DNA from: an uncultured Gemmatimonadales bacterium
Lineage (GTDB): Bacteria; Gemmatimonadota; Gemmatimonadetes; Longimicrobiales; Gaopeijiaceae
DNA: 64,000 bases
Direction: 5' to 3'
Assembly: GCA_963809895.1 (NCBI GenBank)
Contig: CAWELD010000003.1
Coordinates: forward strand, 3,136,001 to 3,200,000
Part shown: positions 242-18,540 of the stretch, in pieces
How the letters are laid out: each line of letters opens with the position of its first letter
Numbering within the stretch: position 1 is the stretch's first letter
Made by a program: the position numbers and the translations under genes
Notes under the pieces: model-generated
What the model was told of the DNA's origin: nothing
Seen by the model: only the letters and a program-made list of their open reading frames with translations
Databases searched by the model: none

Positions 242-630
242 CCGATGTGGACCGCAGGAGGTCCAGGCTGTGCGGATCCCGCACCTGCCCCCCACACAGC
301 ATGCAGCACTGCTTCGTGGAGCTCCGGGAGGACGTGGACCCACCCGTCCTGTTACGCGCGCCCCAAAGCCCACGCCACATGCTCCCGCACCAGAGACTCC
401 GGATCCTCCAGCGCCTCCCGCAACACCTCCACCGCCTCCTCCGGCGGCTCGTCCACCGAAGCCAGCCAGTTCCCCATGGCCACCGCGACGTTGCGCTTGA
501 ACCCGGCGTAGCCCGCCCGCCGAATCGCCGAGCCACGCGAGAACGCGTCCCAGTCCTCGCGGGTCATCCGCATCAGCTCCACCAGCGACGGCGCATAAGT
601 CCCCGGATGCGGGGGATTACCGACACCCGA

Positions 631-707
631 CGTTTCAACTGAAAGATTCTCTTCGGTCAGCCCGGGATCGGCCCGGCCTCTACCATCGCGCGTTTCAGCT
701 GAAACGC
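631..707. promoter_or_regulatory. Two parS-like palindromes 60 bp apart
   Basis: Perfect 18-bp palindrome GCGTTTCAGCTGAAACGC at 690-707 and a degenerate copy CGTTTCAACTGAAAGA at 631-646. Arms match the parS consensus GTTTCA-CG-TGAAAC but the centre is GC or AC. Function is inferred. Confidence 0.4.
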
Positions 708-803
708 TCCTCCGCCGGGAACCCCTCCACCCAGAAGGGCAGCTCCCCCGCCCCCCGCGCCGCATACCCCGGCTCCGCGCTCACCTCCGCGAAGCGCACG
801 TTG

Positions 804-821
804 AACGGACACACCTCCTGG
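804..821. repeat. Left att junction, 18-bp direct repeat
   Basis: AACGGACACACCTCCTGG, identical to 9997-10014; encodes QEVCP(F) of QueG on the minus strand. Confidence 0.93.
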
Positions 822-904
822 GAGGATTGCCCACTTCCGCGTTACGGGATTTCGCTGAGTACGGGCGATTCAAACAGGGATCGGGCGAATGCTGATCCTG
901 ACGC

Positions 905-2024
905 TCATTCGTGAAGAAGGAGTTCTCGGGCTTCCTGCATTGCCAGGGCTGCTTCCTCTTCACTCAGTCGGATGACGAGATTCCCGGAGGGCTGATCCCC
1001 CAGCCATGGACGCATGTGTTTCCGCCACAGGTCGTAGAGTACAGGCGGGTCAACCGGCACCGGATAGGATCCAAGCGCGAAGGAGCGTCGCGTTCTCGCA
1101 TCATCGTCGAGCTGTTCCCAGTCTTCGGCTGTCGCCCGAAGGCCTGCCTTCAGATCCTGACCGGTGACGAAGGACTGCTCCGCTCCGGTCAGTTGCGGAG
1201 CAAGAAGGCGGTGAACTCGGTCGTCGGAAGCGAGCACATGGGCAAAGGGCATGTAGAAGAGGTACTGCAGGTCGATGAGGTGGGTAGCTCGATCAGAAAG
1301 GAACCGGTGACGTACGGCGATCGCGAGTGAGAGCAGGCACCGAATGCAATGGGCAGCGTACGGGGCGTACTCCTGAGCGTAGGTGAAACCAGAGGCCTGC
1401 CATTGCCGTCTTGCTTGTACCCGTTCAGGCTCGCGAGTTATCAGGGTCTGGAGGGCCCACTCGAACCACACGTCCTGAAGCGCCGTCACCGCCAGCAGGT
1501 CATCCGCGATCAGAACGATTCGAGATTCAGAGTCTGGACGGGGGAGAACGACACGGTTCTCGTTCAGGTACCGCGAAAGAGACGCGACGGAGGCCGAGCG
1601 CAGTGAGCCGCCGCCAGTACGCCGACATCTCAGCCTCTGATTCCGTGAACTGCCCCTGCGACCAGCGGAGGATCGCCTCGTTGAGCGGCGACAAGTCGAT
1701 GTGGACGCCACCTGAGCTGCTCTGGAAGAAGTTGTCGGGAAGGATCTGCCCCGTCATGGGAACCACTCCGCCCAGGAGATCGACGCGGGCGAGTTCCCGA
1801 TACGGGGCGTTCACGGGCCCTCCACTCCCACCGAACTTCCTTGCGAGCGTGGCGACCGCATCGGCGGGCCGTTTGCCGGCTGCCACATCCTTCGTGAGGT
1901 CTCCCAGCACCTCGTAGACGAGCACTGGCGTGATGTTCGGGTACAGATGCTGGAACACCACCACGTGCTCCCTCGCAGAGAGAGCCTGGAACGCTGACTT
2001 GTCGAAGATCGTGATCGGCCCCAT
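905..2024 (-). CDS. Hypothetical protein, possibly PIN-like nuclease fold (one frameshift at ~1600)
   Basis: ORFs 1527-2039 and 905-1711 join on removing one base near 1600 (RRLT-RSASVASLSRY). GGAGG precedes the ATG at 2024. N-terminal ITIFDKS, a VLVYEV motif and C-terminal DLQYLFYMPFAHVLASDD resemble PIN acidic motifs (inference). Confidence 0.6.
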
Positions 2025-2119
2025 GGGCCTTACCTCCACCTCGGGGCCGGTTGAGCTGGCCGATCACTTCCGTGTGGGTTTGCCGCCGCCGGTCAGCCAG
2101 TCAGGGTAGGCCCATCCAG

Positions 2120-4639
2120 TCACGGCAGTCGCGATTCGATCTCTACCTGGGCGGCGGATCGCACCTGCGCTTCTATCTCGGCTTCAACAGCAGTGTATAG
2201 GTCGATCTCCTCCTCGGGAGCGCGGATGCTCACGACGAGCGAGTACCGGGCGGGGAGGTGGTAGCGGTCCATGGCCACGTCGTCCTTCCACCATCCGCCA
2301 ACGGGGTAAATGCCAATGGCGTTTCGGTGAGCCAGGTCGGCTGCGGTCCCTCGCCAGACGTCCGAGTGGATTGAGCCGGAGTTCCTGACGCGCGTGTGGA
2401 GGTCCCAGCGGTCCGAATCTGCCGGACGTACCACGTCGACGTCATCCGACCGCTCAGCTCCACTCAATCGAGCCCGGAACTCGTCGTCCGTCTCGAGCGG
2501 ATGCTTAGCCTCGAACCTGAGGCCGTGCGAAGCATACTGATACCGTCGCTTCCAGCCCCTGTCACCGGGCCTTGGTTCGATGAAGTAGCTGAGCGTGACG
2601 CGCATTTCTACCTCGACCTCCCCGAGGTCGAGCATGAGGTCTTGCGGCCACGGCAGCGGATGAATGTGCATCTCTCGCGTACGCGCGGCTGCGCCGTTCC
2701 GCTCATACGGGCGAAGTTCATCTTGCGCCACGAGGGTGAGGTCATTCCTGGCGCTGTAGAGCGCCCTTTCGAGACTCGGCACGCCATACCCGAAGCGCCT
2801 GAGCAGCGTCTGCTTGTCGAGCAGCCTCAGGGTGCGCACGTCCGCACGCGACCTGGCTCCGGCGCGCCGTAACATGGCTGGTGTCCACTCGGCCGAGTGC
2901 ACAATGAGCGCCCGGATAGTTTCCGGCCATGCATTTGGAAGCTCGGCCGTCAGGTGGCCCGCGAGCTGCGCCGCAAGCGCGGAGGCCGCGCTCGTGGCCC
3001 CGAAGGGGCGATACAGCGCGAGCGCGAGCTGGTTGTTGGTTGTCAGCAGGCTCAGGTCATCGTGTGAGACGGCATGCCGACCGTTCACGATGAGGTTGCC
3101 ACCTTCAAGGACAACGTCCGGCTTGCTCGGCCATGACCTGTCCCACGGGACGGCAGTGCGACTCGTCGGGCACAGGTCTCCCGCGTCGGCCAATGGGGTT
3201 GCGTGCTGGACGGCCGGGTCCACGATGTTGACCCGTTCAGTGAACGCCCCCACGGTGAGAGCGTTCCACGCTTGGGCGGGGCTCTGGATGCCCGCGATGT
3301 CGTTCGCGTCAAGGTAGCCGGCCGGCGTGATCTGGTCCTCGTGCAGGTTACCGGCGGCGACGACGATAAGCCGCCGCGGCTCTCCGTCACCTCCGAAGGC
3401 CATTTGATCCAGTGCCGCCGACCACGAAGACGGCGTACCCCCGTCGTTCGCCGTTTCGGTCGTGGCAAGACAGACAACGCGGCGTCTATGCGGGGCCTGA
3501 GCCTCGGCGCGTGCAACACCCTCCTGCGTGATCGCACCGTAGAGTTCCGGCGGGTTCTGGCCAGATGGAGGGAGGATCTTGACGGCCTCGAGGCGATGCG
3601 TTCGGCGGACGGCGCCAGCCCCAGCAAGCACCCCCGTGAGATCACCGAACGCAGCGAGACCGGCCATGCCCGTGCCGTGTCCGCGCCATCGCGCTGCGTC
3701 ATCGGCCACGCCCCAACCCGGTTCGACCGTGTGTTGGTCGGCGGCCGCCAGAATATCTTCGAGGAGCGGATGCTCACGATTCGCCCCGCTGTCGAGCACC
3801 GTCACAGCTGTTTCGGATTCGACCGGACCGAGGCGCTCCCGCAGGTCCTCGGCCCACGCGGCTTGCTCGCGTGCGGGGAGGTCCAGAAAGAACGTCGGGA
3901 CATCGCCCGCGAGCCTGACCTCAGCGAAGGCAAGCGACTCATGCATGAGCGCAGATAGCCGCTCTGGCGTCGCCAGAGCCAACACCACCTCGCGACCTGG
4001 AAACGTGAGGAAGTGGGGCCGAACCGTGATCTCCAGAGTTCCGGCTGCCGCGAGGAAGACGTCTCGGCGCCCACTCCGGAGCCAGACTTCCCACCACGCT
4101 TCCTGATGAGGCGGTGGGAATGATTCCTGATCCCCCACGTAGATGGAGCGAAGCTCGGCCAGTCGAGCCGTTTCCATCCGCGTAACGAGCCGCTCGTTCC
4201 TTGGGCGTCCGCTACGGCTGTCCTCTCTGGTTCGGTATGCCTCTACCTTGCGGATGATCCGGTCTCCAGAGTCCTGAGGCACGAACAGCGTCGCGACAAG
4301 CTGGTCCTGTTCTTCGTCCGCTCGCGCCGACAGGAGTTCGATATTTCGGACCCGGTGTTCCAAGCTCTGCAGGACCGCTTCCTCACCCGACGGCAACCTG
4401 ACTTCCAAGTAGTATCCGAGTTCGTCGTTCGCGAACTCCGTCCTACGGTTCTCGAGAACCACGTCCCCCTCGGCGAACGCCTCTCGCAGTGCAGTCTCGA
4501 GCGCACGAGCGTGCGCCTCACGATTCCGAGCGGGGTTCGGGGGGTGCTCTATGGGTGGGCCGGGCGGGCGGGTGTACGGAGCAGGTTCGCCGCCGCCTTC
4601 GCGGTAGAAATGCGGAAGGTCGCGAGGGTACACAAGCAC
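2120..4639 (-). CDS. S8 family subtilase-like serine protease (IetS/Y4bN type)
   Basis: Catalytic triad motifs VTVLDSG, GHGTGMAG, GATSAAS; VAAGN oxyanion motif; SPAQAWNALTVGA, KPDVVLEGGN, ALIVHSAEW; no signal peptide; directly follows an AAA ATPase. Confidence 0.92.
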   Translation of the reverse strand: MLVYPRDLPHFYREGGGEPAPYTRPPGPPIEHPPNPARNREAHARALETALREAFAEGDVVLENRRTEFANDELGYYLEVRLPSGEEAVLQSLEHRVRNIELLSARADEEQDQLVATLFVPQDSGDRIIRKVEAYRTREDSRSGRPRNERLVTRMETARLAELRSIYVGDQESFPPPHQEAWWEVWLRSGRRDVFLAAAGTLEITVRPHFLTFPGREVVLALATPERLSALMHESLAFAEVRLAGDVPTFFLDLPAREQAAWAEDLRERLGPVESETAVTVLDSGANREHPLLEDILAAADQHTVEPGWGVADDAARWRGHGTGMAGLAAFGDLTGVLAGAGAVRRTHRLEAVKILPPSGQNPPELYGAITQEGVARAEAQAPHRRRVVCLATTETANDGGTPSSWSAALDQMAFGGDGEPRRLIVVAAGNLHEDQITPAGYLDANDIAGIQSPAQAWNALTVGAFTERVNIVDPAVQHATPLADAGDLCPTSRTAVPWDRSWPSKPDVVLEGGNLIVNGRHAVSHDDLSLLTTNNQLALALYRPFGATSAASALAAQLAGHLTAELPNAWPETIRALIVHSAEWTPAMLRRAGARSRADVRTLRLLDKQTLLRRFGYGVPSLERALYSARNDLTLVAQDELRPYERNGAAARTREMHIHPLPWPQDLMLDLGEVEVEMRVTLSYFIEPRPGDRGWKRRYQYASHGLRFEAKHPLETDDEFRARLSGAERSDDVDVVRPADSDRWDLHTRVRNSGSIHSDVWRGTAADLAHRNAIGIYPVGGWWKDDVAMDRYHLPARYSLVVSIRAPEEEIDLYTAVEAEIEAQVRSAAQVEIESRLP

Positions 4640-4651
4640 GTCAGCCGATCG

Positions 4652-5629
4652 TCACCGGTGTGAGGATTTTCGTTCTGCGATCGCAGAAAGGAGGGTATCG
4701 AGGTCGATCTGGGGCTTCCGCTCGAGAATCGCCGTCTTCGCTGCCTCGTCCGCGGCTCGGGCGACATCGGCTTGGCTCATTCCGGAGGCGGCGCCAGCAA
4801 CTGTCTCCCAGTCGACGGCGCTCGTATCGAACGTCGCAAGCCGCGCATGCATAATCCCGATGGCCACTTCCGCACCTGGCAGAGAGTATTCGATCACATC
4901 GTCGAACCTGCGAAACAGAGCGGGATCGAGTAGTTCCAGATGGTTCGTCGCTGCGATGACAAGCCCTTCGGATTCGTCCTGTTCGAGGAACTGCAGGAAT
5001 GAGTTGAGTACTAGGCGTATTTCTCCGACATCGTTGCCGGCGGACCGCCGGGAGCCGATAGCGTCGAACTCGTCGAAGAAGTAGACGCCTCGCGTCTGTG
5101 CCATGGCGTCGAACACGAGCCGGAACTTGGCGGCAGTCTCTCCCAGGAACTTCGTCAGGACACCCTCCAACCGGATTGTGAAGAGAGGGAGTTTCAATTC
5201 GCCGGCGAGGGCTGCCGCCGTCATCGTCTTGCCCGACCCGGAGGGGCCTACCAGCAACAGCTTTCTCCGTGGCATAAGCCCGTGGGAGCGAAGCTTCAAC
5301 TGTTGCTTCTGCTCATTCAGAACCCGTTTGAGCCGAAGGGCGACCTCATCGGTCAAGACCATGTTGCCGAGCCGAAGGTCCGGGTAGATGACCGAGAGCA
5401 GGTTCGCGATGTCGCCCTGAGGCGGCGTGAGCGGAATCGCGCCCTTGCGCTCGACGGCTGACCGCTTCGCCTTCGCTTCGTCGATGAGCTCACGAAGCTC
5501 CTGTGCGATCTTGGAGTGACCCCGACGAGCCTCATGAGCGGCGGCTTGCATGGCCACGGCCATGAACTGTGCATCATACCCCTCGATGTGGCTCCGCAGC
5601 AGAGCGATGATGTGGCGAGCTGTGCTCAT
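4652..5629 (-). CDS. AAA+ ATPase (IetA type)
   Basis: Walker A GPSGSGKT, Walker B YFFDEFD, IAATNH and LDPALFRRFD second region of homology; 12 bp upstream of the S8 protease. Confidence 0.93.
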   Translation of the reverse strand: MSTARHIIALLRSHIEGYDAQFMAVAMQAAAHEARRGHSKIAQELRELIDEAKAKRSAVERKGAIPLTPPQGDIANLLSVIYPDLRLGNMVLTDEVALRLKRVLNEQKQQLKLRSHGLMPRRKLLLVGPSGSGKTMTAAALAGELKLPLFTIRLEGVLTKFLGETAAKFRLVFDAMAQTRGVYFFDEFDAIGSRRSAGNDVGEIRLVLNSFLQFLEQDESEGLVIAATNHLELLDPALFRRFDDVIEYSLPGAEVAIGIMHARLATFDTSAVDWETVAGAASGMSQADVARAADEAAKTAILERKPQIDLDTLLSAIAERKSSHR

Positions 5630-5774
5630 CGTCGAGGAGTCCGAATCTTCTGGTGGGACCGGTGTGCCGTCGTGTGCCGTACGCGCGAGTAAAATGGTTC
5701 GGGATCAAAGGGGAATATATCCTGGCCCTCGATTCTGGCCCGGCCGCTTTGATGGTAGGATGTAAGCGGCCTCG

Positions 5775-6757
<983 letters not shown>

Positions 6758-7193
6758 GTCTCTGGCGGCGAGATTCACCCTTCTCAATCTGGCCTCCGGG
6801 AGGCGGCACCGCCACCGGATGACCCACCGCCTGCCCGGCAAGGGGGCATGTATCGTGTTGGTGAGCACCAAGCCTTGACGACGACGTTCCCCGACCGCGC
6901 CTCACATCACGTCAGCCCGCCTGAATGGAGGTGGTGCATAGTTGCCGCACCTGACCCCGTCGCAGTCTGCAACCCTTGCGGGCGGATAGCGCCGGCCGGC
7001 CGGCCGGTGTAGGCATCCGCGTTCACGTGTTGTCGAAAGGGCCTTCCTCCAACGACGCTATCCCTTCCCTGGCGCGGTGGCCGCTCCAACTCGAATCCGT
7101 GAATCCCCTCACCACCGGTACAGTGGCATCCAACAGACCAGCCCGCCTCCGGGAAAGGCGATCCCACACGAATCGAAGACCGGGAGACGCGCA

Positions 7194-7571
7194 ATGTCGC
7201 AAGCTCTGAATGCCATCGCGAAGGACTGGCGCCAGGAGGCCGATAATCTCAGCAGCCGCTACGCAGATGGCCGTCTCGCTGCGCTCTGCGAGACCCACGC
7301 CGGAGAGTTGGACGCACTCCTCAGGACCCAGCTCGACGAGGAACTGACTTTGAAGCAGGCAGCTCGGATCAGCGGATACAGCTATTCGCACCTGCGTCGC
7401 CTCCTGGACGCGGGGGAACTGGCCAACATGGGGATCGAAGGGCGCCCCCGCGTGCGCCTTGGTGATCTGCCGTTCAAGGCTGGGCGGGCCGTGCCCCTCG
7501 GAGCGCTGAGTGCCGCGAAGCGGGCGCAGAGCCGTGTGAAGGCCAAGGGTCGGGTACGCCCGATCGGGTGA
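7194..7571 (+). CDS. Helix-turn-helix (HTH_17/excisionase-like) DNA-binding protein
   Basis: LTLKQAARISGYSYSHLRRLLDAGEL is a MerR/Xis-like wHTH pattern; lies immediately upstream of the recombinase. Confidence 0.75.
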   Translation: MSQALNAIAKDWRQEADNLSSRYADGRLAALCETHAGELDALLRTQLDEELTLKQAARISGYSYSHLRRLLDAGELANMGIEGRPRVRLGDLPFKAGRAVPLGALSAAKRAQSRVKAKGRVRPIG

Positions 7572-7652
7572 CGAAGGGGGAGTGCCCGCCGGTGGGGCGG
7601 GATCGCAACTACGAAGGGCACACACTCACACGAACACAGACCCCTCAGATCC

Positions 7653-9709
7653 ATGAGCAAGAAGAACGTCATCATCGTCGAGGAAAGGAAGCCCGACCTG
7701 CACGGGGATTCGGTCTTCGAGGTAGAGCTGGAGCCTGGCGTCGAGGCCTCCCCGATTCGCTGGAGCGGTCAGAGCGAGCCGAGGCTCTGGTCCCTCACGC
7801 TGACGCATGTCAGCGGTCTGCAGGTGGTGGTGAGGGAGCGGGTTCGCGGCACTATCGAACTCGAATCGGAGTTCATCGACAGACGCGGAGGTGTTCTCAC
7901 GGTCAAGCCCCTGGTGGGGTTCTTCCCGATCGGATTCGTGTCACACGGAAGAGCTCGCGCGAGGATGAGAAACAGAAGTTCTCGCATGATCAGCAGAACG
8001 ACGACATGACAGCCGAATGGGGGGCGATCGACCCGGTCTGGTGGTGGAAGGAGAGCCGGAGCGGAACCAGCTTCGATCGTCCCTCCTTCCAGGACGTGCT
8101 CGACTTCTGTCGGTCCAATCCTCGCCCTGTCGGGGAGCCCGGCAGAGTGGAATGGTGGGCACCCCACCGGTTCGGGCGTAGCCTGGACGTGAACGGCCAG
8201 CCGGACATCATGAAGTTCATGGCCATGTACAACGAGTTCCAGAACCCGGAGTGGCACCTCCACTTCCTCAAGGTCCCCGGGTGAACCATCCCCTGGGGGA
8301 CGTGTTGAACATCGCTGTCTATGCCTACGCCGCGGCGGTGTACTCCAAGGACCTCTCGGAAAACGCCACCCGCGGTCGGCGTAGCGAGGGCGAGAAGGGT
8401 TGGTGGGTGAACGGCCAGGCTCCGTGGGGGACGAAACGCAAGGACACCCTTGAGGACCGAATTCTCGAGCCTGGCGAGAAGTCGAAGCCGGGTGGCGGGG
8501 GGACGATCCTGGTTGAGGACCCGGACATCCTACCGCATTGGAGGCCGTCCGCGGAGTCGTTCCTGGCGGGCGCCTCGTACAAAGGCATCGGCGAGGACCT
8601 CTACGACGTCGGCTTGCGCGGTCCTCAGGGCGGCGCCTTGGGACACCGACACATCCGGAACTTCCTCACGAACCGGCACCTGATCGGCGAGGTGAAGGTC
8701 CGAGACGCGGATGGCAACGTACAGTGGCCCCCGCCAAGTGGGATGCGCTGGTCGATCGCGCACTGTTCGAGAAGGTCGTGCAGGAGGCGGAGCGGCGGAA
8801 GTCACAGCCCCGGGACAAGAAGCGCACGTCGAAGGGGACCTTCCTCCTGCGGCCCGCATGCGCCCACTGCGGGATCGAGTACCACGGCGGACGTAACGGA
8901 AAGAAGCAGGGGAGTGCATGCACATACGTCCACCCGAAACCCCACAAGGTCCATCACCCCGAGATCTACGACGCCTATGTGGAGCACGAGTGCCGCGGGT
9001 GGACTGTACTCGCGGACGAGCTCGAAGGGGCGGTCAAGGACCTCATTCTCCGTGAGCGGACGTCTGTAGGCTACGAAGAGGAGATCCGGGCGCTGATCCT
9101 GGAGAAGGAGCAGTTCGAGCAGGGCGCCGCCGCCGCGGTGAAGGCGGCTGAGCAGAAGGTTGAAGACCTGGAGACCCAGCATCGGAGCCAAAGCCGGAGG
9201 TTGGCTCGTCTTCAGGAGAGGGAGATCGATGAGGACGCGCCCCTCGACGAACTGCGAGGCGACCCAGCAGAAGCTCAACGCCGCCCGATCAGAGGTCGAG
9301 AAGGCGCACGAGTTCCGACGCTCCCGAAGAGGTGGCCTGGGACCGCCTATCGAAGGTCATCGACGAGACGCGCAACCTTGCCGAGACGTGGGACAAGGTC
9401 GGGCTCGATGAGCGTAGGCTCCTACTCGACTGGTGGGTCCTGGACGTCCAGATCGTCGTGGAGCCGATCGAAGGGATGAAGAAGGCCAACGAAAAGACGG
9501 CCATCGTGACGCTCCGAAGTGACCCGAACGCCTCCCGCTACTTCGGGCTCGGTAACCGCCTCTCCAAGGCCGACTCGAGTTCGCCCCGGACGAACGCGTC
9601 GTCTTCTGATTCCGACGCCGCCGACAGCACGTCGGCGGCGTCTGCCGAGTCGATGCACCGCAAGCGCCCCGGCGGCGTGCCCGCGAACCAATGGATCAGG
9701 GTCTTGTAG
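7653..9709 (+). CDS. Large serine recombinase (integrase), frameshifted in this assembly
   Basis: Pieces across frames: (Y)TRKSS catalytic motif at ~7941-7957, SGTSFDRPSF, RFGRS, YSKDLSENATRG...GWWVNGQAPWG recombinase domain, CAHCG...C...C zinc ribbon, coiled coil, ERRLLL C-terminal motif. Frameshifts near 7941, 8280, 8730, 9255 and 9325. True stop is uncertain (see findings). Confidence 0.88.
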
Positions 9710-10895
9710 CGCCGACGCCAGCACGGGAACCGCCGCGTCCAAGCCCCAGTTGCCGAGTGCCACGCAGACGTTGCGGGCGAACCCGGAGCGTCCTGCACGT
9801 CGGATGGCGGAGCCGCGGGAGAACGATCCCCAGGAGGACTCGTCGAGAGCGGTCGTCAGCAGGTCGATCAGCGACGGCGAGGAGGTGCCGGGGTACCAGA
9901 CGTCCGACGGGAGCGGGCTCCACGCCGAACGGTGGTTGTCCTGGCGATCGGGCAGAGTATGCGGGCTCGGAGGAGGGGGTTGAGAACTTACGGGTAAACG
10001 GACACACCTCCTGGCAGATGTCGCAGCCGAACACCCGGTTCCCCATGAGGGGGCGGAGCTCTTCGGGAATCGCGCCACGGTGCTCGATGGTCAGGTAGGA
10101 GATGCACCGGGTTGCGTCCATGACCGGCGCGCCGTCCTCGTCGCGTCCCAGGAGCGCGCCCGTGGGGCAGGCGTCGAGGCACGCCCGGCACGAGCCGCAG
10201 TGGTCCGCCTCGAAGGGCTCGTCGGGGGGCAACTCCACATCCAGCAGCAGCACGCCCAGGAAGAACCACGAGCCTCGCCGGGGATGGATGAGCATGGTGT
10301 TCCGGCCGAACCAGCCGAGGCCGGCGCGCTGTGCCAAGTCCCGCTCGAGAATCGGGCCGGTGTCGACGTAGGCGCGGCCCGCGACTGCGGCGGGCGCCTC
10401 GGCGCCCTCTCTCCGCGCACCACCACCCGCGCCATCCGCGCCGCCGCCCGGCGGCCCGCCGACCCGCTCGTCTCCACCAGCACGCGCCCCCACTTCTCCC
10501 TCCAGCCACCGCAGCAATCCGAACAGCTTCTTCTTCACCACCTTGTGGTAGTCCCGTCCGCGCGCGTAGCGGGCGATGACGCCCACCCCGGGATCCCCCG
10601 GGACTCCGGGTGCGTCCTCCTGGAAGTACTCGTGGGCCACCACCAGCACCGAACGGACGTCCTCGAAGGTGCCGCGCAGATCCTCGCGGCGAGCCACCGC
10701 CTCGGGGCGGGCGAGGTAGTCCATGTCGCCGTGGCGACCCTCGGCCAGCCAGCGGCGGAAGAACGCCCCGTGCCTCGACGCGTCCGGCCGCGCGATGCCG
10801 GCAAGCGAGAACCCGCGCCGCCGGGCCTCCTCCTTCAGGTCGTCCGCGAGCCTTCGCGCCAGCACCCGCCGCCGCGCCGCACCTTCGTCCGTCAC
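9538..10895 (-). CDS. queG: tRNA epoxyqueuosine(34) reductase QueG, chimeric (host 5' part plus element-borne 3' part)
   Basis: ARYARGRDYH, YVDTGPILER, AGLGWFGRN, CGSCRACLDACPT, RCISYLTIE, GCDICQEVCP motifs. GTG start overlaps the upstream TGA. The 3' part (9538-9996) needs two 1-nt corrections (~9917, ~9661) to read ...SFSRGSAIRRAGRSGFARNVCVALGNW...LQDPDPLVRGHAA.ALRCIDSADAA...RLPSPK*. Confidence 0.92.
9997..10014. repeat. Right att junction, 18-bp direct repeat
   Basis: Identical to 804-821; sequence composition changes at this point. Confidence 0.93.
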
Positions 10896-12563: not shown

Positions 12564-14383
12564 ATGAGCCAGACCGTCGCCGACTATCTCGTGCACCGCC
12601 TCCGCGAGTGGGGCGTCGACCCGCATCTTCGGCTATCCCGGGCGACGGCATCAACGGGATCATGGGCGCCCTCAACCGCGCCGAGGACGAGGTCGAGTTC
12701 GTCCAGGCCCGGCACGAGGAGCTGGCCGCCTTCATGGCCTGCGCCCACGCCAAGTTCACCGGCGAGGTGGGCGTCTGCCTCGCCACCTCCGGGCCCGGCG
12801 CCATCCACCTGCTGAACGGCCTCTACGACGCCAAGATGGACCACCAGCCGGTGGTGGCCATCGTCGGCCAGCAGGCGCGCGCCGCGCTGGGCGGCGACTA
12901 CCAGCAGGAGGTGGACCTCGATCTCCCTGTTCAAGGACGTGGCGCACCACTACGTGCCACATGGCCACGACGCCGGAGCAGACGCGGCACCTGGTGGACC
13001 GCGCCGTGCGCATCGCGAAGGCCGAGCGCGACGTCACCTGCATCATCTTCCCCAACGACGTCCAGGAGCATCGACCACCGAGGAGCCCGCCCCGCGCGCA
13101 CGGCACGGTGCACTCCGGCGTCGGCTACACGGCCGCCGCGCGTGGTCCCGCACGACGAGCGACCTGCGAGCGCGCCGCCGACGTCCTCAACGAGGGCGAG
13201 CGGGTCGCGATGCTGGTCGGGCCAGGGCGCGCTCGGCGCCACGCGAGGAGGTGATGGAGGTCGCCGACCTGCTGGGCGCCGGCGTGGCCAAGGCCATGCT
13301 CGGCAAGGCGGTCCTCGACGACGACCTGCCCTACTGCACCGGCGCGCATCGGCCTGCTGGGCACCAAGCCGTCCTGGAACCTCATGCAGGACTGCGACAC
13401 GCTCCTCATGGTCGGCACGAGCTTCCCGTACTCGGAGTTCCTGCCCGCCCGAAGGCCAGGCGCGCGGCGTCCAGATCGACATCGAGCCCCCGCATGCTCG
13501 GCATCCGCTACCCGACCGAGGTGCAACCTGGTCGGGCGACGCGCAGGAGACGTTGCGCGCGCTGATGCCCCACCTGGACCGCAAGGCGGACCGCCGCTGG
13601 CGCGAGGACGATCGAGGAGGACGTGGCCGAGTGGTGGACAGCTGCTCGAGGCGCGCGCCATGAACGACGCCGATCCCGATCAACCCGCAGCGGGTCTTCT
13701 GGGAGCTCTCGCCGCGCCTTGCCCGACGACGTGCATCCTGGCGTCGGACTCGGGCTCGGCGGCCAACTGGTACATGCGCGACCTGAAGGTGCGGCCGGGC
13801 ATGATGGCGTCGCTCTCGGGCAACCTCGCCACCATGGGTCCGGGCGTGCCCTACGTCATCGCGGCCAAGTTCGCCCATCCCGACCGGCCCGGCGATCGCC
13901 CTGGTCGGCGACGGCGCGATGCAGATGAACGGCATCAACGGCCTGATCACCATCGCCAAGTACTGGAAGCGACTGGGAGGATCCCGCGCCTGATCGATGT
14001 GCGTGCTCAACAACCAGCGACCTGAACCAGGTGACCTGGGAGCAGCGCGTCATGGAGGGCGACCCCGAGTTCGAGGCGTCCCAGAACGTCCCCGGGCTTC
14101 CGCTACGCGCGACTACGCCGAGCGGCTCGGCCTCAAGGGCATCCGCGTCGAGGACCCGGAGGCGCTGGGCCGGCGCGTGGGACGCGGCGCTCTCCGCCGA
14201 CCGGCCCACCGTGCTCGACGTGCGAGACCGACCCGAACGTCCCGCCGCTGCCGCCCCACATCAGCTTCGAACAGGCGCGCAAGTTCGCCCGCTCCATGCT
14301 GGAGGGCGACCCGCACCGGCGGGGCGTGATCGAAGCAGAGGGTCAAGGAGATGGTCGAGACCCTCGTTCCGCGAGCAGCTGAG
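12564..14383 (+). CDS. Thiamine pyrophosphate-requiring enzyme (pyruvate oxidase/PoxB-like), many frameshifts
   Basis: MSQTVADYLVHRLREWGV, PGDGINGI, QARHEELAAFMA, ATSGPGAIHLLNGLYDAKMD, SGNLATMG and GDGAMQMNG...LNN motifs spread across frames. End is approximate. Confidence 0.85.
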
Positions 14384-14392
14384 GACGGCGCC

Positions 14393-15514
14393 GTGGGCTC
14401 CCCCGACCATCTCCCGGTGCCGGCGGTGGAGACCGAGGGCGTACTCGGTTCCCACCGACGCCCCGGAGTCGGACGGCACGCTGACCTGGGACGCCACGGG
14501 CCTGGTGGTGGTCCACGCCCGGGCCGGCGACGAGACCGGGCTCGGCTTCGCCTACACCATCGCCGGCCGCCGCCAGGCTCGTCGAGCAGCACGCTGGCGC
14601 CGGCGTTGGCGGGCGAGGACGCGCTGGCGCCGCGGGCGGCCTGGCATCGCATGTGGCACGCAGGTCCGCAACCTGGGTCGACCGGGGGTCGCGTCGTCGG
14701 CCATCGCGGCGGTGGACATCGCGCTGTGGGATCTGAAGGCCCGCCTCCTGGGCGTCCCGCTGGTGGACCTCTTCGGGGCGCTGCGCGCAGGCGATCCCGG
14801 CCTACGGAAGCGGGGGATTCACCTCGTACTCCGCTCGACCGGCTCCGGACGCAACTGGCCGGCTGGGCCGAAGCAGGGCTTCGCGCATGTGAAGATGAAG
14901 GTGGGGCGCGACCCCGACTGCCGACCCCGAGCGGGTGGCGGCCGCCCGCGAAGCCATGGGCGACGACGTGGCGCTCTTCGTGGACGCCAACGGCGCGCTA
15001 CGACCGCAAGCAGGCCCTGGCCTGCGACCGTCAGCTTCCGCGAGGAGTGGGGCGTCACGTGGATGGAGGAGCCGGTCTCCTCGGACGACCATGAAGGGCC
15101 TGCGGCTGCTCCGCGACCAGGGCCCCGCCGGGCATGGCACATCGCGGCCGGGGAGTACGGTGGGACCTGTTCGACTTCCGCGCGCTGCTGGAGGCGCGGC
15201 GCGGTCGACGTCGCTGCAGGCGGACGTCGGACCGCTGCGGCGGCTACACCGCCGTTCCTGCGGGTCGCCGCGCTGTGCGACGCCCACTGCGTCCCGCTGT
15301 CCGCCCACACGGCGCCGGCCTCCACACACCGGCCATGTGCGCCGTCCACCGCGCTATCCACGTCGAGTACTTCCACGACCACGCGCGCATCGAGTCCCTG
15401 CTCTTCGACGGAGCGCCTCGGCCCGAGGACGGCATGCTGCGCCCCCGCCGCGATCGGCCCGGGCATGGCCTGACCTTCAAACGATCGGATGCAGAGGACT
15501 ACCGTGTCACATGA
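14393..15514 (+). CDS. Mandelate racemase/muconate lactonizing (enolase superfamily) protein, frameshifted
   Basis: VPTDAPESDGTLTWD, AIAAVDIALWDLKARLLG, KMKVG, LFVDANGA, WMEEPVSSDD, AAGEYG, HVEYFHDH. Confidence 0.82.
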
Positions 15515-15557
15515 TGCCGAGGAGCGAGGAGAGGGCGGATCGAGATCGAGGGCGGTC

Positions 15558-18540
15558 GTGCTGCCCGTCGCAGGGCCGCGAGGCTTCAGCGGCGAGACCG
15601 CGGACGCGCGGCGCCTGGCCTCGGCGCTGACGGAGCCGCTGGAGGGAGACGTCCGCTTCGACGCAGGTCATCGGGCGGCGTACAGCCACCGATGCCTCCA
15701 ACTACCGCCAGCCACCGATGGGGGTGGTGCTGCCCCGGAGCAAGGAGGACGTGGAGCGCACGGTGGCGCATGTGCCGCGAGCACGGGGCGCCCGATCCTC
15801 GGCCGCGGAGGCGGCACGAGCCTGGCGGGCCAGTGCTGCAACGTGGCGGTGGTGCTGGATTTCACGCCGCTACATGAACCGGGTCCTGGAGATCGACCCG
15901 GAGCGCCGCATCGCCCGGGTGCAGCCGGGCTGCGTGCTGGACGACCTGCGCGAGGCGGCCGCCGAAGCACGGGCTGACCTTCGGGCCCGACCCGGCGACG
16001 CACGACCGCTGCACCCTCGGCGGAATGATCGGCAACAACTCGTGCGGCATCCACTCGGTCCATGGCGCACTGGCACCACGGCCCGCGCACCTCGGACAAC
16101 GTCTCGCGCCTCGAGGTCCTCACCTACGACGGCGCGCGCTTCTGGACCGGGCCGACCGACGACGAGGCTACCGGGCGCATCCAGGAGGCCGGCGGACGCC
16201 GGGCGGAGATCTACCGCGGACTGCGCGAGCTGCGTGAGCGACCACGCAGAGGAGATCCGCGCGCGCTATCCCGGACATCCCGCGGCGGGTGAGCGGCTAC
16301 AACCTGGACGAGCTGCTGCCGGAGAACGGCTTCAACGTGGCCCGGGCGCTGGTGGGCAGCGAGTGCACGCTGCGCTGATGGTCCTGGAAGCGGAGCTGCA
16401 CCTGATCCCCAAGCCCGCCGCCGACGCCCTGGTGCTGGTGGGCTACCGGGACGTCTACGAGGCCGCGGAGGACGTGCCCGACGATCATGGAGCTGCGAGC
16501 CCATCGGGCTGGAGGCGATCGACGAGCGGCTGATCGACTACATGAAGCGCAAAGGGCCTCAACGTCGAGGACCTGCGGGCTGCTGCCGGAGGGCAGCGCC
16601 TACCTGCTGGTGGAGTTCGGCGGCGACAGATCGCGAGGAGGCCGAGCGCGCGCGCCCAGGAATTCCGCGACGCCTTCGCGAGGACCGCGACGCGTCCCGT
16701 GGCGGTGAAGCTCTACGACGACCCCGAGGCCGAAGCGAAGGTCTGGGAGGTGCGCGAGTCGGGCCTGGGCGCGACGGCCTTCGTCCCGGGCATGCGCGCG
16801 ACACCTGGCCGGGTTGGGAGGACTCGGCGGTGCCGCCCGAACGGCTCGGGCGACTATCTGCGGGACTTCCGGCGCCTACTGGACGACCACGGCTACGACT
16901 GCTCCTTCTACGGCCACTTCGGCCAGGGCCTGCTGCACACCCGCATCGACTTCGCAGCTCGACCACCAGCCGCGGCATCCGCGCAGTTCATGCACTTCCT
17001 GAGGGACGCCGCCGGACCTGGTGACGTGCGCTACGGAGGCTCCCTCTCCGGCGAGCACGGCGACGGGCAGGCCCGCGGCGGCGCTGCTGTCGAAGATGTA
17101 CGGGCCGAGCCTCGACGGAGGCCTTCCGGACGTTCAAGCGCCTATGGGACCCCGAGTGGTAGGATGAACCCCGGGAAGGTCGTCGACGCCTGGCTCCCCG
17201 ACGAGAACCTGCGGGTCGGTGCCGGACTGGGAGCCCGAAGAGAACGCGGACACGTGGTTCGCCTTCCCGGACGACCACGGCAGCTTCGCCGCGGGCCACG
17301 CTCCGGTGCGTGGGCGTGGGGAAGTGTCGCCGTCACGGCGGCGGGACCATGTGTCCCAGCTACATGGCCACCCATGAGGAGCGGCACGCCACCCGGGGAC
17401 GGCGCGCATCCTGAACGAGATGATGCGCGGGCGAAGTCGTCACGCGACGGCTGGAGGAGCGAGGAGGCCCGGGAGGCCCTCGACCTGTGCCTGGCGTGCA
17501 AGGGATGCAAGGGCGACTGCCCCGTGAACGTCGACATGGCCACGTACAAGGCCGAGTTCATGGCGCACCATTACGAAGGTCGCCTCCGACCCCGCGCTCG
17601 CACTATGCCTTCGGGGGGATCTACTGGTGGTCGCGTTTGGCCTCTCACGCGCCCCGCCTGGTGAACTGGCTCGGGCGGACGCGCCCCCTTCTCGCGGCTC
17701 GCGAAGTGGGCGGCGGACGTGCATCCCCGCCGCACCATGCCGACCTTCGCGGAGCGGACCTTCAAGGACCTCTTCTTCTCCGAGCTCGCAGGGCGCGAAC
17801 CCCGACGGCCCGAAGGTCCTCTTCTGGGCCGACACCTTCAAGAACTACCTGCACCCCGAGCCCGCCATCGCCGCGGTGCGGGTGCTGCAGGCCCTCGGAT
17901 ATCAGCGTGGTCGGTCCCCGGCGCCGTCCCTGTGCTGCGGCCGCCCCCTCTACGACTTCGGCTTCCTGGGAAGGGCGAAGAAGCTGCTGCGGCAGACGAT
18001 GGAGGAGCTCCACGACGACATCGTCGATGGGCGTCCCCGTCGTCGGCGTCGAGCCGAGCTGCGTGGCCGCCTTCCGCGACGAGCTGCGTCGCAGCTCTTC
18101 CCGGAGGACCACGGTGGCCAGGCGGATGTCCCGCCAGACCTGGCTCTTCGGGGAGTTCCTCGATCGCTACGCGGCCGACGTCGATCTCCCGCGCCTGGGC
18201 GGCACCGCCCTGCTACACGGCCACTGCCACCAGAGGGCCGTGCTGGACTTCGACGCCGACCGCCGGGTCCTGGACCGGCTGGGGATCGAGGCCGAGCGTG
18301 CCCGAGTCCGGATGCTGCGGGATGGCCGGCCCCTTCGGCTTCGAGCGCGACCACTTCGATGTGAGCCAGGCGTGCGCGGAGCGGGTGCTCCTGCCCGCGG
18401 TACGCGACCGCGAAGACGGCGCGATGGTGGTCACCGACGGCTTCAGCTGCCGGACGCAGATCGAGCAGAACCATCGAAGGTGTGCGCCCGCTCAACCTGG
18501 CAGAGGTGGTATGGCGAGCCATGGAACGAGCACGGCATGA
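15558..18540 (+). CDS. FAD-binding and (Fe-S)-binding oxidoreductase (GlcD/GlcF-type fusion), frameshifted
   Basis: GRGGGTSLAGQ, GGMIGNNSCG, SLSGEHGDGQAR, MNPGKV, CLACKGCKGDCP, CCGRP, HGHCHQ, CCGMAG, DGFSCRTQI. Start is approximate. Confidence 0.85.

Follow-up and report, generated by a model that had tools for sequence, protein, structure and literature searches.

The 64,000-nucleotide stretch of uncultured Gemmatimonadales DNA analysed here (the window) contains a 9,193-bp insertion, measured junction to junction, in queG, a gene of queuosine synthesis. This insertion is likely an integrative element with defence genes as cargo, moved by a Gemmatimonadota clade of large serine recombinases (LSRs). 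Comparison with relatives indicates that such elements almost certainly target the Gln codon between the second and third Cys of the QueG motif C-x-x-C-x-x-x-C-P, fuse a 3' half of 130-180 codons to the host gene, leave the native half orphaned and accumulate as tandem units. Very probably, the recombinase gene is also open across the attachment (att) site, its frame running antisense over the replacement half and being kept open.

Insertion into queG and the recombinase family

The window belongs to contig C3 of a 95%-complete, 5.3-Mb genome (G000). The single QueG 5' half of this genome (10014..10895, minus strand; the B side) matches QueG_DUF1730 and Fer4_16 of Pfam as well as TIGR00276 (249 bits, cut-off 200) and ends in C-D-I-C, the insertion point being the Gln codon of C-D-I-C-Q-E-V-C-P. 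The element has a GC content of 63%, compared to 71% in the flank, and is bounded by identical 18-bp repeats at 804-821 (attR) and 9997-10014 (attL), of which the 5.3-Mb genome has no further copies. Two QueG 3' halves, 52% identical over 84 aa, are present: an inner one (9538..10011, minus strand) made up of the P' arm and a HEAT-repeat part (HEAT_2), and an outer one (352..818, minus strand; the B' side). An earlier note, made from the letters of the window alone, had described the repeats, the one 5' half and the two 3' halves, all of which were recovered by the genome search and TIGR00276. It had also taken the inner half to be element-borne and the outer one to be native. The outer half groups (support 97) with eight native queG genes, the three nearest rows being same-genus genomes, and the inner half has 86-87% amino acid identity to the LSR-linked halves of genomes G038 and G624 (another family); the proposed polarity is therefore borne out.

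The further suggestion that the element supplies a replacement for the lost end holds across many genomes. Family-wide the replacements have about 130-180 codons and are open in relatives; neither 3' half of the window is an open frame in this assembly. Compared with an 88%-identical relative (L157, blastn), the inner half has two extra bases (~9660 and ~9918), and the outer half has a frame shift near 700-740. All 24 host-fused replacements in relatives are open, at least 125 aa long and keep Q-x-x-C-P, and 23 of them keep R-N-x-x-V-x-x-G-N. The sole 3' half found in the 97%-complete genome G038 is of the element type and stands beside a 53-codon LSR relic, and the window genome has a tgt gene. 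There is good reason from these sequences to expect that the hybrid QueG works. Genome G034 carries two full queG genes (contigs C21 and C89), both with element-like 3' halves, and a 3.2-kb unit lacking an LSR.

The recombinase core of the window (7907..9535, plus strand; detected with the family HMM) lies in four frameshifted pieces (7907-8278, 8275-8730, 8718-9257 and 9326-9535), and its start codon is not placeable. Pfam Recombinase (PF07508) scores above the cut-off in the window and Resolvase below it (E 0.003). The family profile matches the catalytic domains of phiC31 and TP901-1, and an R-K-S-S motif is present; intact relatives match the SPbeta and phiC31 integrases by profile and these plus Bxb1 by fold (Foldseek E ~1e-15 to phiC31 and SPbeta). 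Conserved Cys ligands and, in the model of relative L089, long helices at 404-516 are also found. The family consists of large serine recombinases with catalytic domain, Recombinase domain, zinc ribbon and coiled coil, and the named relatives of the window recombinase are Gemmatimonadota.

Searches were run over collections of genomes, metagenomes and viruses and over three sets of 401 genomes each; LSR matches, distant ones included, turned up in 13 (phylum), 6 (class) and 25 (order) of the 401 genomes. After four genomes present under two handles were dropped, 48 distinct LSR loci remained, and a queG 3' half lies tail-to-tail with the LSR in 34 of them (L041, with a partial 3' half upstream of an LSR piece, counted as not adjacent). 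The association holds for 32 of the 34 best-scoring loci and for 2 of the 14 lower-scoring ones; in the two best-scoring exceptions, only 154 and 168 bp separate the end of the locus from the contig edge. In a quick tree of 75 cores, all 24 LSRs bearing queG or the antisense tail described below fall in one clade of 27 (SH-aLRT 100), whose other three members have neither. The earlier note had proposed a serine-integrase family targeting queG, to be sought through recombinase homologues tail-to-tail with queG 3' fragments, and the adjacency and the clade support it. No close LSR was found among 50,697 phage and 72,556 plasmid records, and the viral collection yielded only LSRs of 20-28% identity, none with queG. 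A large sister group of LSRs (L102 in G314, L164 in G669, and proteins P0007-P0091) has no link to queG.

The note's reading of the element was correct as to serine family, queG target and replacement; a 2-bp crossover, tandem arrays and a read-through integrase had gone unnoticed. The sequence common to neighbouring junctions is 18 bp in the window, 6 bp in G043, 3 bp (CAG) in one G318 pair and CA only in G034. Because neighbouring junctions share as little as CA, the crossover is most likely the CA of the Gln codon (10012-10013 at attL in queG sense, 819-820 at attR); on these alignments the 18-bp repeat is coding conservation and not the recombination core. The P and P' arms mirror one another outward from CA (16 of 30 matches in the window), and a C-[GA]-[TA] motif at 20-22 occurs in 33 of the 37 P arms and in 20 of the 27 P' arms, whereas none of the 27 native B arms or the 27 native B' arms has it. 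The sequence C-C-G stands at 14-16 in B, which would fit the 5-bp inward shift of the ZD motif in LSR attB sites when set against 19-21 in P, and at 11-13 in B'. LSR attP sites carry a ZD motif with a footprint of 16-24 bp, as described in the accessible part of PMC3783163, and the pattern of the P and P' arms matches this architecture. With the P' arm inside the replacement, the queG half of the element also encodes one arm of attP.

The recombinase frame across the attachment site

The LSR frame reaches the att site without a stop, running antisense to the entire replacement and continuing through the site. In the window the recombinase frame passes the 3' end of queG and extends over 9536..10098 (plus strand, broken by the same two indels as the inner half), across attL, and ends 28 codons into host queG. 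Of the seven full-length homologues that the first search returned, six have a C-terminal stretch of about 150 residues that is an antisense reading of QueG. As that search favoured long proteins, openness was tested on DNA: the antisense frame is stop-free in 28 of 30 LSR-linked halves (window excluded) vs. 8 of 25 native halves. These native controls, which exclude a duplicate and two truncated halves, include one from the unpublished genome G025, without which the count is 7 of 24. Tyr codons follow C or T, the antisense-stop context, in 1/19 LSR-linked vs. 16/27 native cases. The LSR and queG registers share wobble positions, through which QueG dictates the tail residues; conservation of the tail sequence is thus passive, and its openness is not. 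Integrated copies retain the whole LSR core (up to 556 of 556 profile positions), and after integration the frame goes on for 0-28 codons beyond the crossover in 22 of the 25 copies, for 6 codons in 11.

Orphaned queG fragments are preceded by a conserved arm, the P arm (819..914, plus strand, in the window). Read in the LSR frame it gives a conserved peptide, approximately W-E-x-C-R-x-x-R-F-x-I-x-L-x-T-G-x-R-T-L and then a stop, at codon 25 in 21 of 41 rows. Because of the palindrome, in which the proximal ~24 bp mirror the P' arm, the first eight codons mirror Q-E-V-C-P-F-x-R-K of QueG, and their codon signal is weak (ratio of non-synonymous to synonymous polymorphism, pN/pS, 0.80). Codons 8-19 lie outside the palindrome. 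In 39 distinct arms (one off-register and one duplicate arm dropped) these codons show a pN/pS of 0.65 and no stops in the LSR frame, each of the other five frames giving a ratio within 0.79-1.44 and between 1 and 21 stops, and all four wobble bases are seen at Thr14, Gly15 and Thr18. Bases 24-60 are conserved outside the ZD footprint, with third positions lowest (0.54 vs. 0.69 and 0.75), and bases 24-90 gave no folding signal (mean z 0.12 and 0.00, n=51). Twelve held-out arms, retrieved with a pattern over the proximal part (17 of 301 genomes; control pattern 0), have a pN/pS of 0.63, one of them being frameshifted. Nine database proteins combine antisense tail and peptide in a single frame, and those that could be traced are tandem junctions. 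No Pfam match was obtained for the peptide, and in an AlphaFold2 model of the attP-form fragment P0093 (22 rows) it stays below 50 pLDDT. A role for the peptide in completing the zinc-ribbon sheet gained no support: the peptide does not match the termini of sister LSRs, and the core adopts its fold in its absence.

In the mechanism proposed here, the queG 3' half brought by the element is joined to the 5' half of the host, with the orphaned native half at the far end, and read-through of the LSR would carry a disordered linker of about 150 residues across the replacement; in AlphaFold2 the core is modelled with confidence and the tail is mostly below 50 pLDDT. In the circular form the P-arm peptide would be appended, giving the active form of the enzyme; integration would swap it for 0-28 host residues and damp the enzyme in the chromosome, which would stabilise the island. 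That the LSR is translated through in this way, its attP form ending in a peptide of about 25 residues and its integrated form keeping the core plus host-derived residues, seems probable. We see about an even chance that the serine integrase regulates itself by recombination through a dual-coding segment, some 150 codons giving half of a host Fe-S/cobalamin enzyme on one strand and the disordered linker on the other. The peptide, made only in the excised state, would then set the activity, direction or stability of the enzyme, and the site would grow into an integron-like array of defence and toxin-antitoxin cassettes, every one with a queG end of its own. More tentatively, by analogy with the Mx8 switch, the peptide may make the attP form integration-competent or more stable, and insertion may then damp the enzyme and stabilise the island.

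Several observations weigh against this proposal. The attP-type junctions found in genomes are tandem neighbours and not free circles, and public run contigs contain no circle or attP joint for the window element, the junction that the earlier note had asked for. The window LSR, being frameshifted, may be dead. The contrast in antisense openness has a Fisher p of 2e-6 that is inflated by kinship, two LSR-linked halves (L153 and L155) have antisense stops, and two full-length clade members (P0016 and P0017) lack the tail. Early stops occur in two of the 12 held-out arms, the pN/pS signal is weaker, at 0.75 (n=15), once each genome or locus contributes a single arm, and the sense frame with shared wobble is also below 1 (0.79 and 0.75) and not fully separable from the LSR frame. 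Since AlphaFold2 folds the LSR core confidently without the peptide, the peptide is not an obvious missing strand. Finally, the strongest P-arm signal (pN/pS 0.51) comes from LSR-less units of G318, where the antisense frame is stopped at codon 41-42 in 12 of 17 arms, indicating that no LSR now reads into those units; either the divergence of these arms dates from ancestors that still had an LSR, or the arm serves some second purpose.

Some of the same data would suit a passive read-through, in which a GC-rich gene will frequently have its shared-wobble antisense frame open and the distal P arm owes its conservation to a DNA site and not to a peptide: eight native halves are open anyway, the tail residues are set by QueG, the first 24 bp are a palindrome mirror with little codon signal, and LSR-less units keep the arm. 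Avoidance of antisense stops in the Tyr contexts, conservation of bases 24-60 beyond the ZD footprint (as given in the accessible part of PMC3783163) with third positions lowest, the clustering of stops at codon 25 and the missing folding signal make this explanation unlikely. Still less probable is a peptide made alone, as a small protein or leader of about 23 residues starting from ATG or GTG at codon 2, or an opposite frame serving as the start of a QueG C-terminal part. Codon 2 is ATG or GTG in each of the 17 G318 arms, and the strongest signal is in these LSR-less units, but such a codon follows from the palindrome, and in the window clade it is GAT, GAA, GAC or GAG with the peptide still kept. 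The sense frame, for all its pN/pS of 0.75-0.79, reads the invariant Leu as a mix of Ser and Arg (24/12) and, in three of the 39 arms (that of the window among them), meets a stop eight codons ahead of the Gln; the open linker, too, is left unaccounted for.

Mis-assembly of two queG alleles, which the earlier note had feared, or chance is hardly credible, in spite of many single-base indels in the window, a run of 41 T and the lack of any public contig bridging both junctions. The window-type layout recurs on single contigs in six relative genomes (G041, G042, G043, G180, G291 and G314), run contigs of X1, X2 and X3, 95-96% identical to the cargo, terminate at 821, and one contig of run X4 terminates at 795, these runs representing three studies; GC content also differs between the element (0.63) and its surroundings (0.71). 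Extra bases at 872 and 1602 are absent from contigs of other runs, and the breaks in the window LSR are likely assembly errors as well. Positions 7090-7506 are uncovered by contigs in four runs.

Cargo, neighbouring features and arrays

The defence cargo of the window consists, on the minus strand, of an IetS-like subtilase (2120..4639; PADLOC IetS 1.6e-34, Peptidase_S8) and an IetA-like AAA ATPase (4652..5629; PADLOC IetA 1.5e-68), followed by an Mrr-like endonuclease (5786..6724, minus strand; Mrr_cat 1.9e-8), within which the 41-T run at 5872-5912 is probably an assembly artefact. A further cargo gene (905..2039, minus strand) is split in two by the extra base at 1602, which is missing in contigs of three other runs, and has no assigned family, the ESM Atlas giving none either. 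Upstream of the LSR lies a gene for an excisionase-like HTH_17 protein (7077..7571, plus strand; Pfam), a type of gene found near the LSR in just one of 14 other elements compared. Two homologues of it (35%) are located elsewhere on C3 of G000, at ~1,556,700 and ~2,232,000, and both adjoin open reading frames (ORFs) that by eye resemble tyrosine-integrase genes. An ORF of 118 aa and no known family (7653..8009, plus strand) overlaps the 5' end of the LSR. In 9 of 15 elements, the window not being among them, a helical ORF of 70-100 aa abuts the LSR start (e.g. L034:9733-9999 and L087:3185-3466); it is a candidate directionality factor, with no Pfam family and no usable ESM Atlas match. Short LSR relics beside queG were considered as a deliberate mini-gene, a possibility rejected as 16 relics share no start or endpoint. 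None of the ORFs of the window element is a conjugation, relaxase or virion gene, other elements having been scanned in part.

In the displaced queG half there is an insert between palindromes at ~631-645 and ~690-705. This perfect 16-bp palindrome (core TTTCAGCTGAAA), present there twice, has 25 near-copies across the genome, and we take it to resemble parS-type or REP-type palindromes. Outside the element, the host genes at 12,600-16,500 carry many frameshifts, consistent with long-read indel error; judged by eye, they are like a thiamine-dependent oxidase, an enolase-superfamily protein and an FAD oxidase.

In relatives, queG 3' fragments (the own gene included) number 21 in G318, on five main contigs plus one weak match, seven in G291, four in G314 and three each in G180, G042, G041, G304 and G357. 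Array units range from 790 bp to tens of kb, most of them without an LSR. Cargo in the scanned parts (93 and 70 proteins) includes IetAS, Hachiman, CBASS, type I restriction-modification and HerA, as well as many type II toxin-antitoxin pairs and Ser/Thr kinases. In G318 about 20 queG-tagged units form an integron-like arrangement on contigs C77, C135, C36, C60 and C20 (L171-L175 and L185) with only an LSR relic; many of these units carry one toxin-antitoxin pair or one Ser/Thr kinase-WD40/TPR gene. In one of them (L173:5542-6186, minus strand) the ORF from the P arm runs for 215 codons and has no Pfam match. A G180 element (L179:9640-12550) encodes a small resolvase along with a replication protein of the Rep_1 family, which hints at circular replication in some members.

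Comparison with known systems

These findings place queG among the targets of LSRs and among the hotspots for defence genes in a phylum that is abundant but rarely cultured, and the overlap is a natural long antisense arrangement with signs of selection on both strands, which bears on the origin of overlapping genes. It would also suggest that serine integrases, a class used in genome engineering, can be controlled through a recombination-switched C-terminus, beyond a directionality factor alone. For LSR mining from integrated copies it is a caution, as the annotated protein may differ from the active form.

The integrase of Mx8 belongs to the tyrosine recombinases and acts on a tRNA target. 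In Mx8 and Mx9, attP lies in the integrase coding sequence and integration yields a new 3' end with the enzyme staying active (accessible parts of PMC6070905 and PMC4383910); attP inside an integrase gene is known for Mx8, Mx9 and SSV-type integrases (see also PMC7253208). The window family shares the attP within the integrase coding sequence and the new 3' end, but it is a serine family with a protein-coding target and has a second gene half on the other strand before attP; it works like Mx8 at most. The integrases of SSV1, pTN3 and pT26-2 likewise have a translated att site, but are split into inactive halves, use tRNA targets and are described as archaeal only in the accessible part of PMC8371274; in the window family the core remains intact and only the last ~25 residues change, so it is not a suicidal integrase divided into N- and C-terminal parts. 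In mycobacteriophage BPs, attP lies in the repressor gene and recombination swaps a C-terminal peptide, a degron, according to the available text of PMC3694055. This swap spanning attP is similar, whereas the frame crossing attP in the window family is that of the LSR and not of a repressor.

The e14-icd, SXT-prfC and dusA islands are cases of target restoration in protein genes, mostly with tyrosine integrases and short replacements. Like target-restoring islands at tRNA and tmRNA genes, which supply the displaced gene end and can form tandem arrays (PMC4383910, in the part available), the elements described here supply the displaced part in frame in relatives, the window copy carrying two indels; they differ in the replacement of 130-180 codons, the serine chemistry and the double use of the replacement as linker and attP arm. 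LSRs of protein genes, such as Mg-chelatase/ComM and prolyl isomerase, resemble them in the loyalty of a clade to one conserved codon of one gene family, but are described as disrupting the target in the accessible part of PMC10083194. The gene queG is not named in the text or eight supplement files of PMC10083194 or in the supplement of PMC12884075, nor in the available portions of PMC13626063, PMC12424338 and bioRxiv 10.64898/2026.01.13.699239. The literature covered, with the TIGER/Islander tables and PMC7192596 outside its scope, contained no description of integration into queG or of a serine integrase whose frame passes through attP by way of a replacement gene. Accretion of integrative and conjugative elements and cis-mobilizable elements (ICE/CIME), as far as the accessible part of bioRxiv 10.64898/2026.01.13.699239 describes it, similarly places integrase-bearing and integrase-less units at one att site; the ORFs of the window element, in contrast, show no conjugation genes, and each unit carries a queG 3' half. 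The elements are real and recurrent, and they appear to represent a serine system in which restoration of the target is newly combined with an att-in-integrase switch and with accretion.

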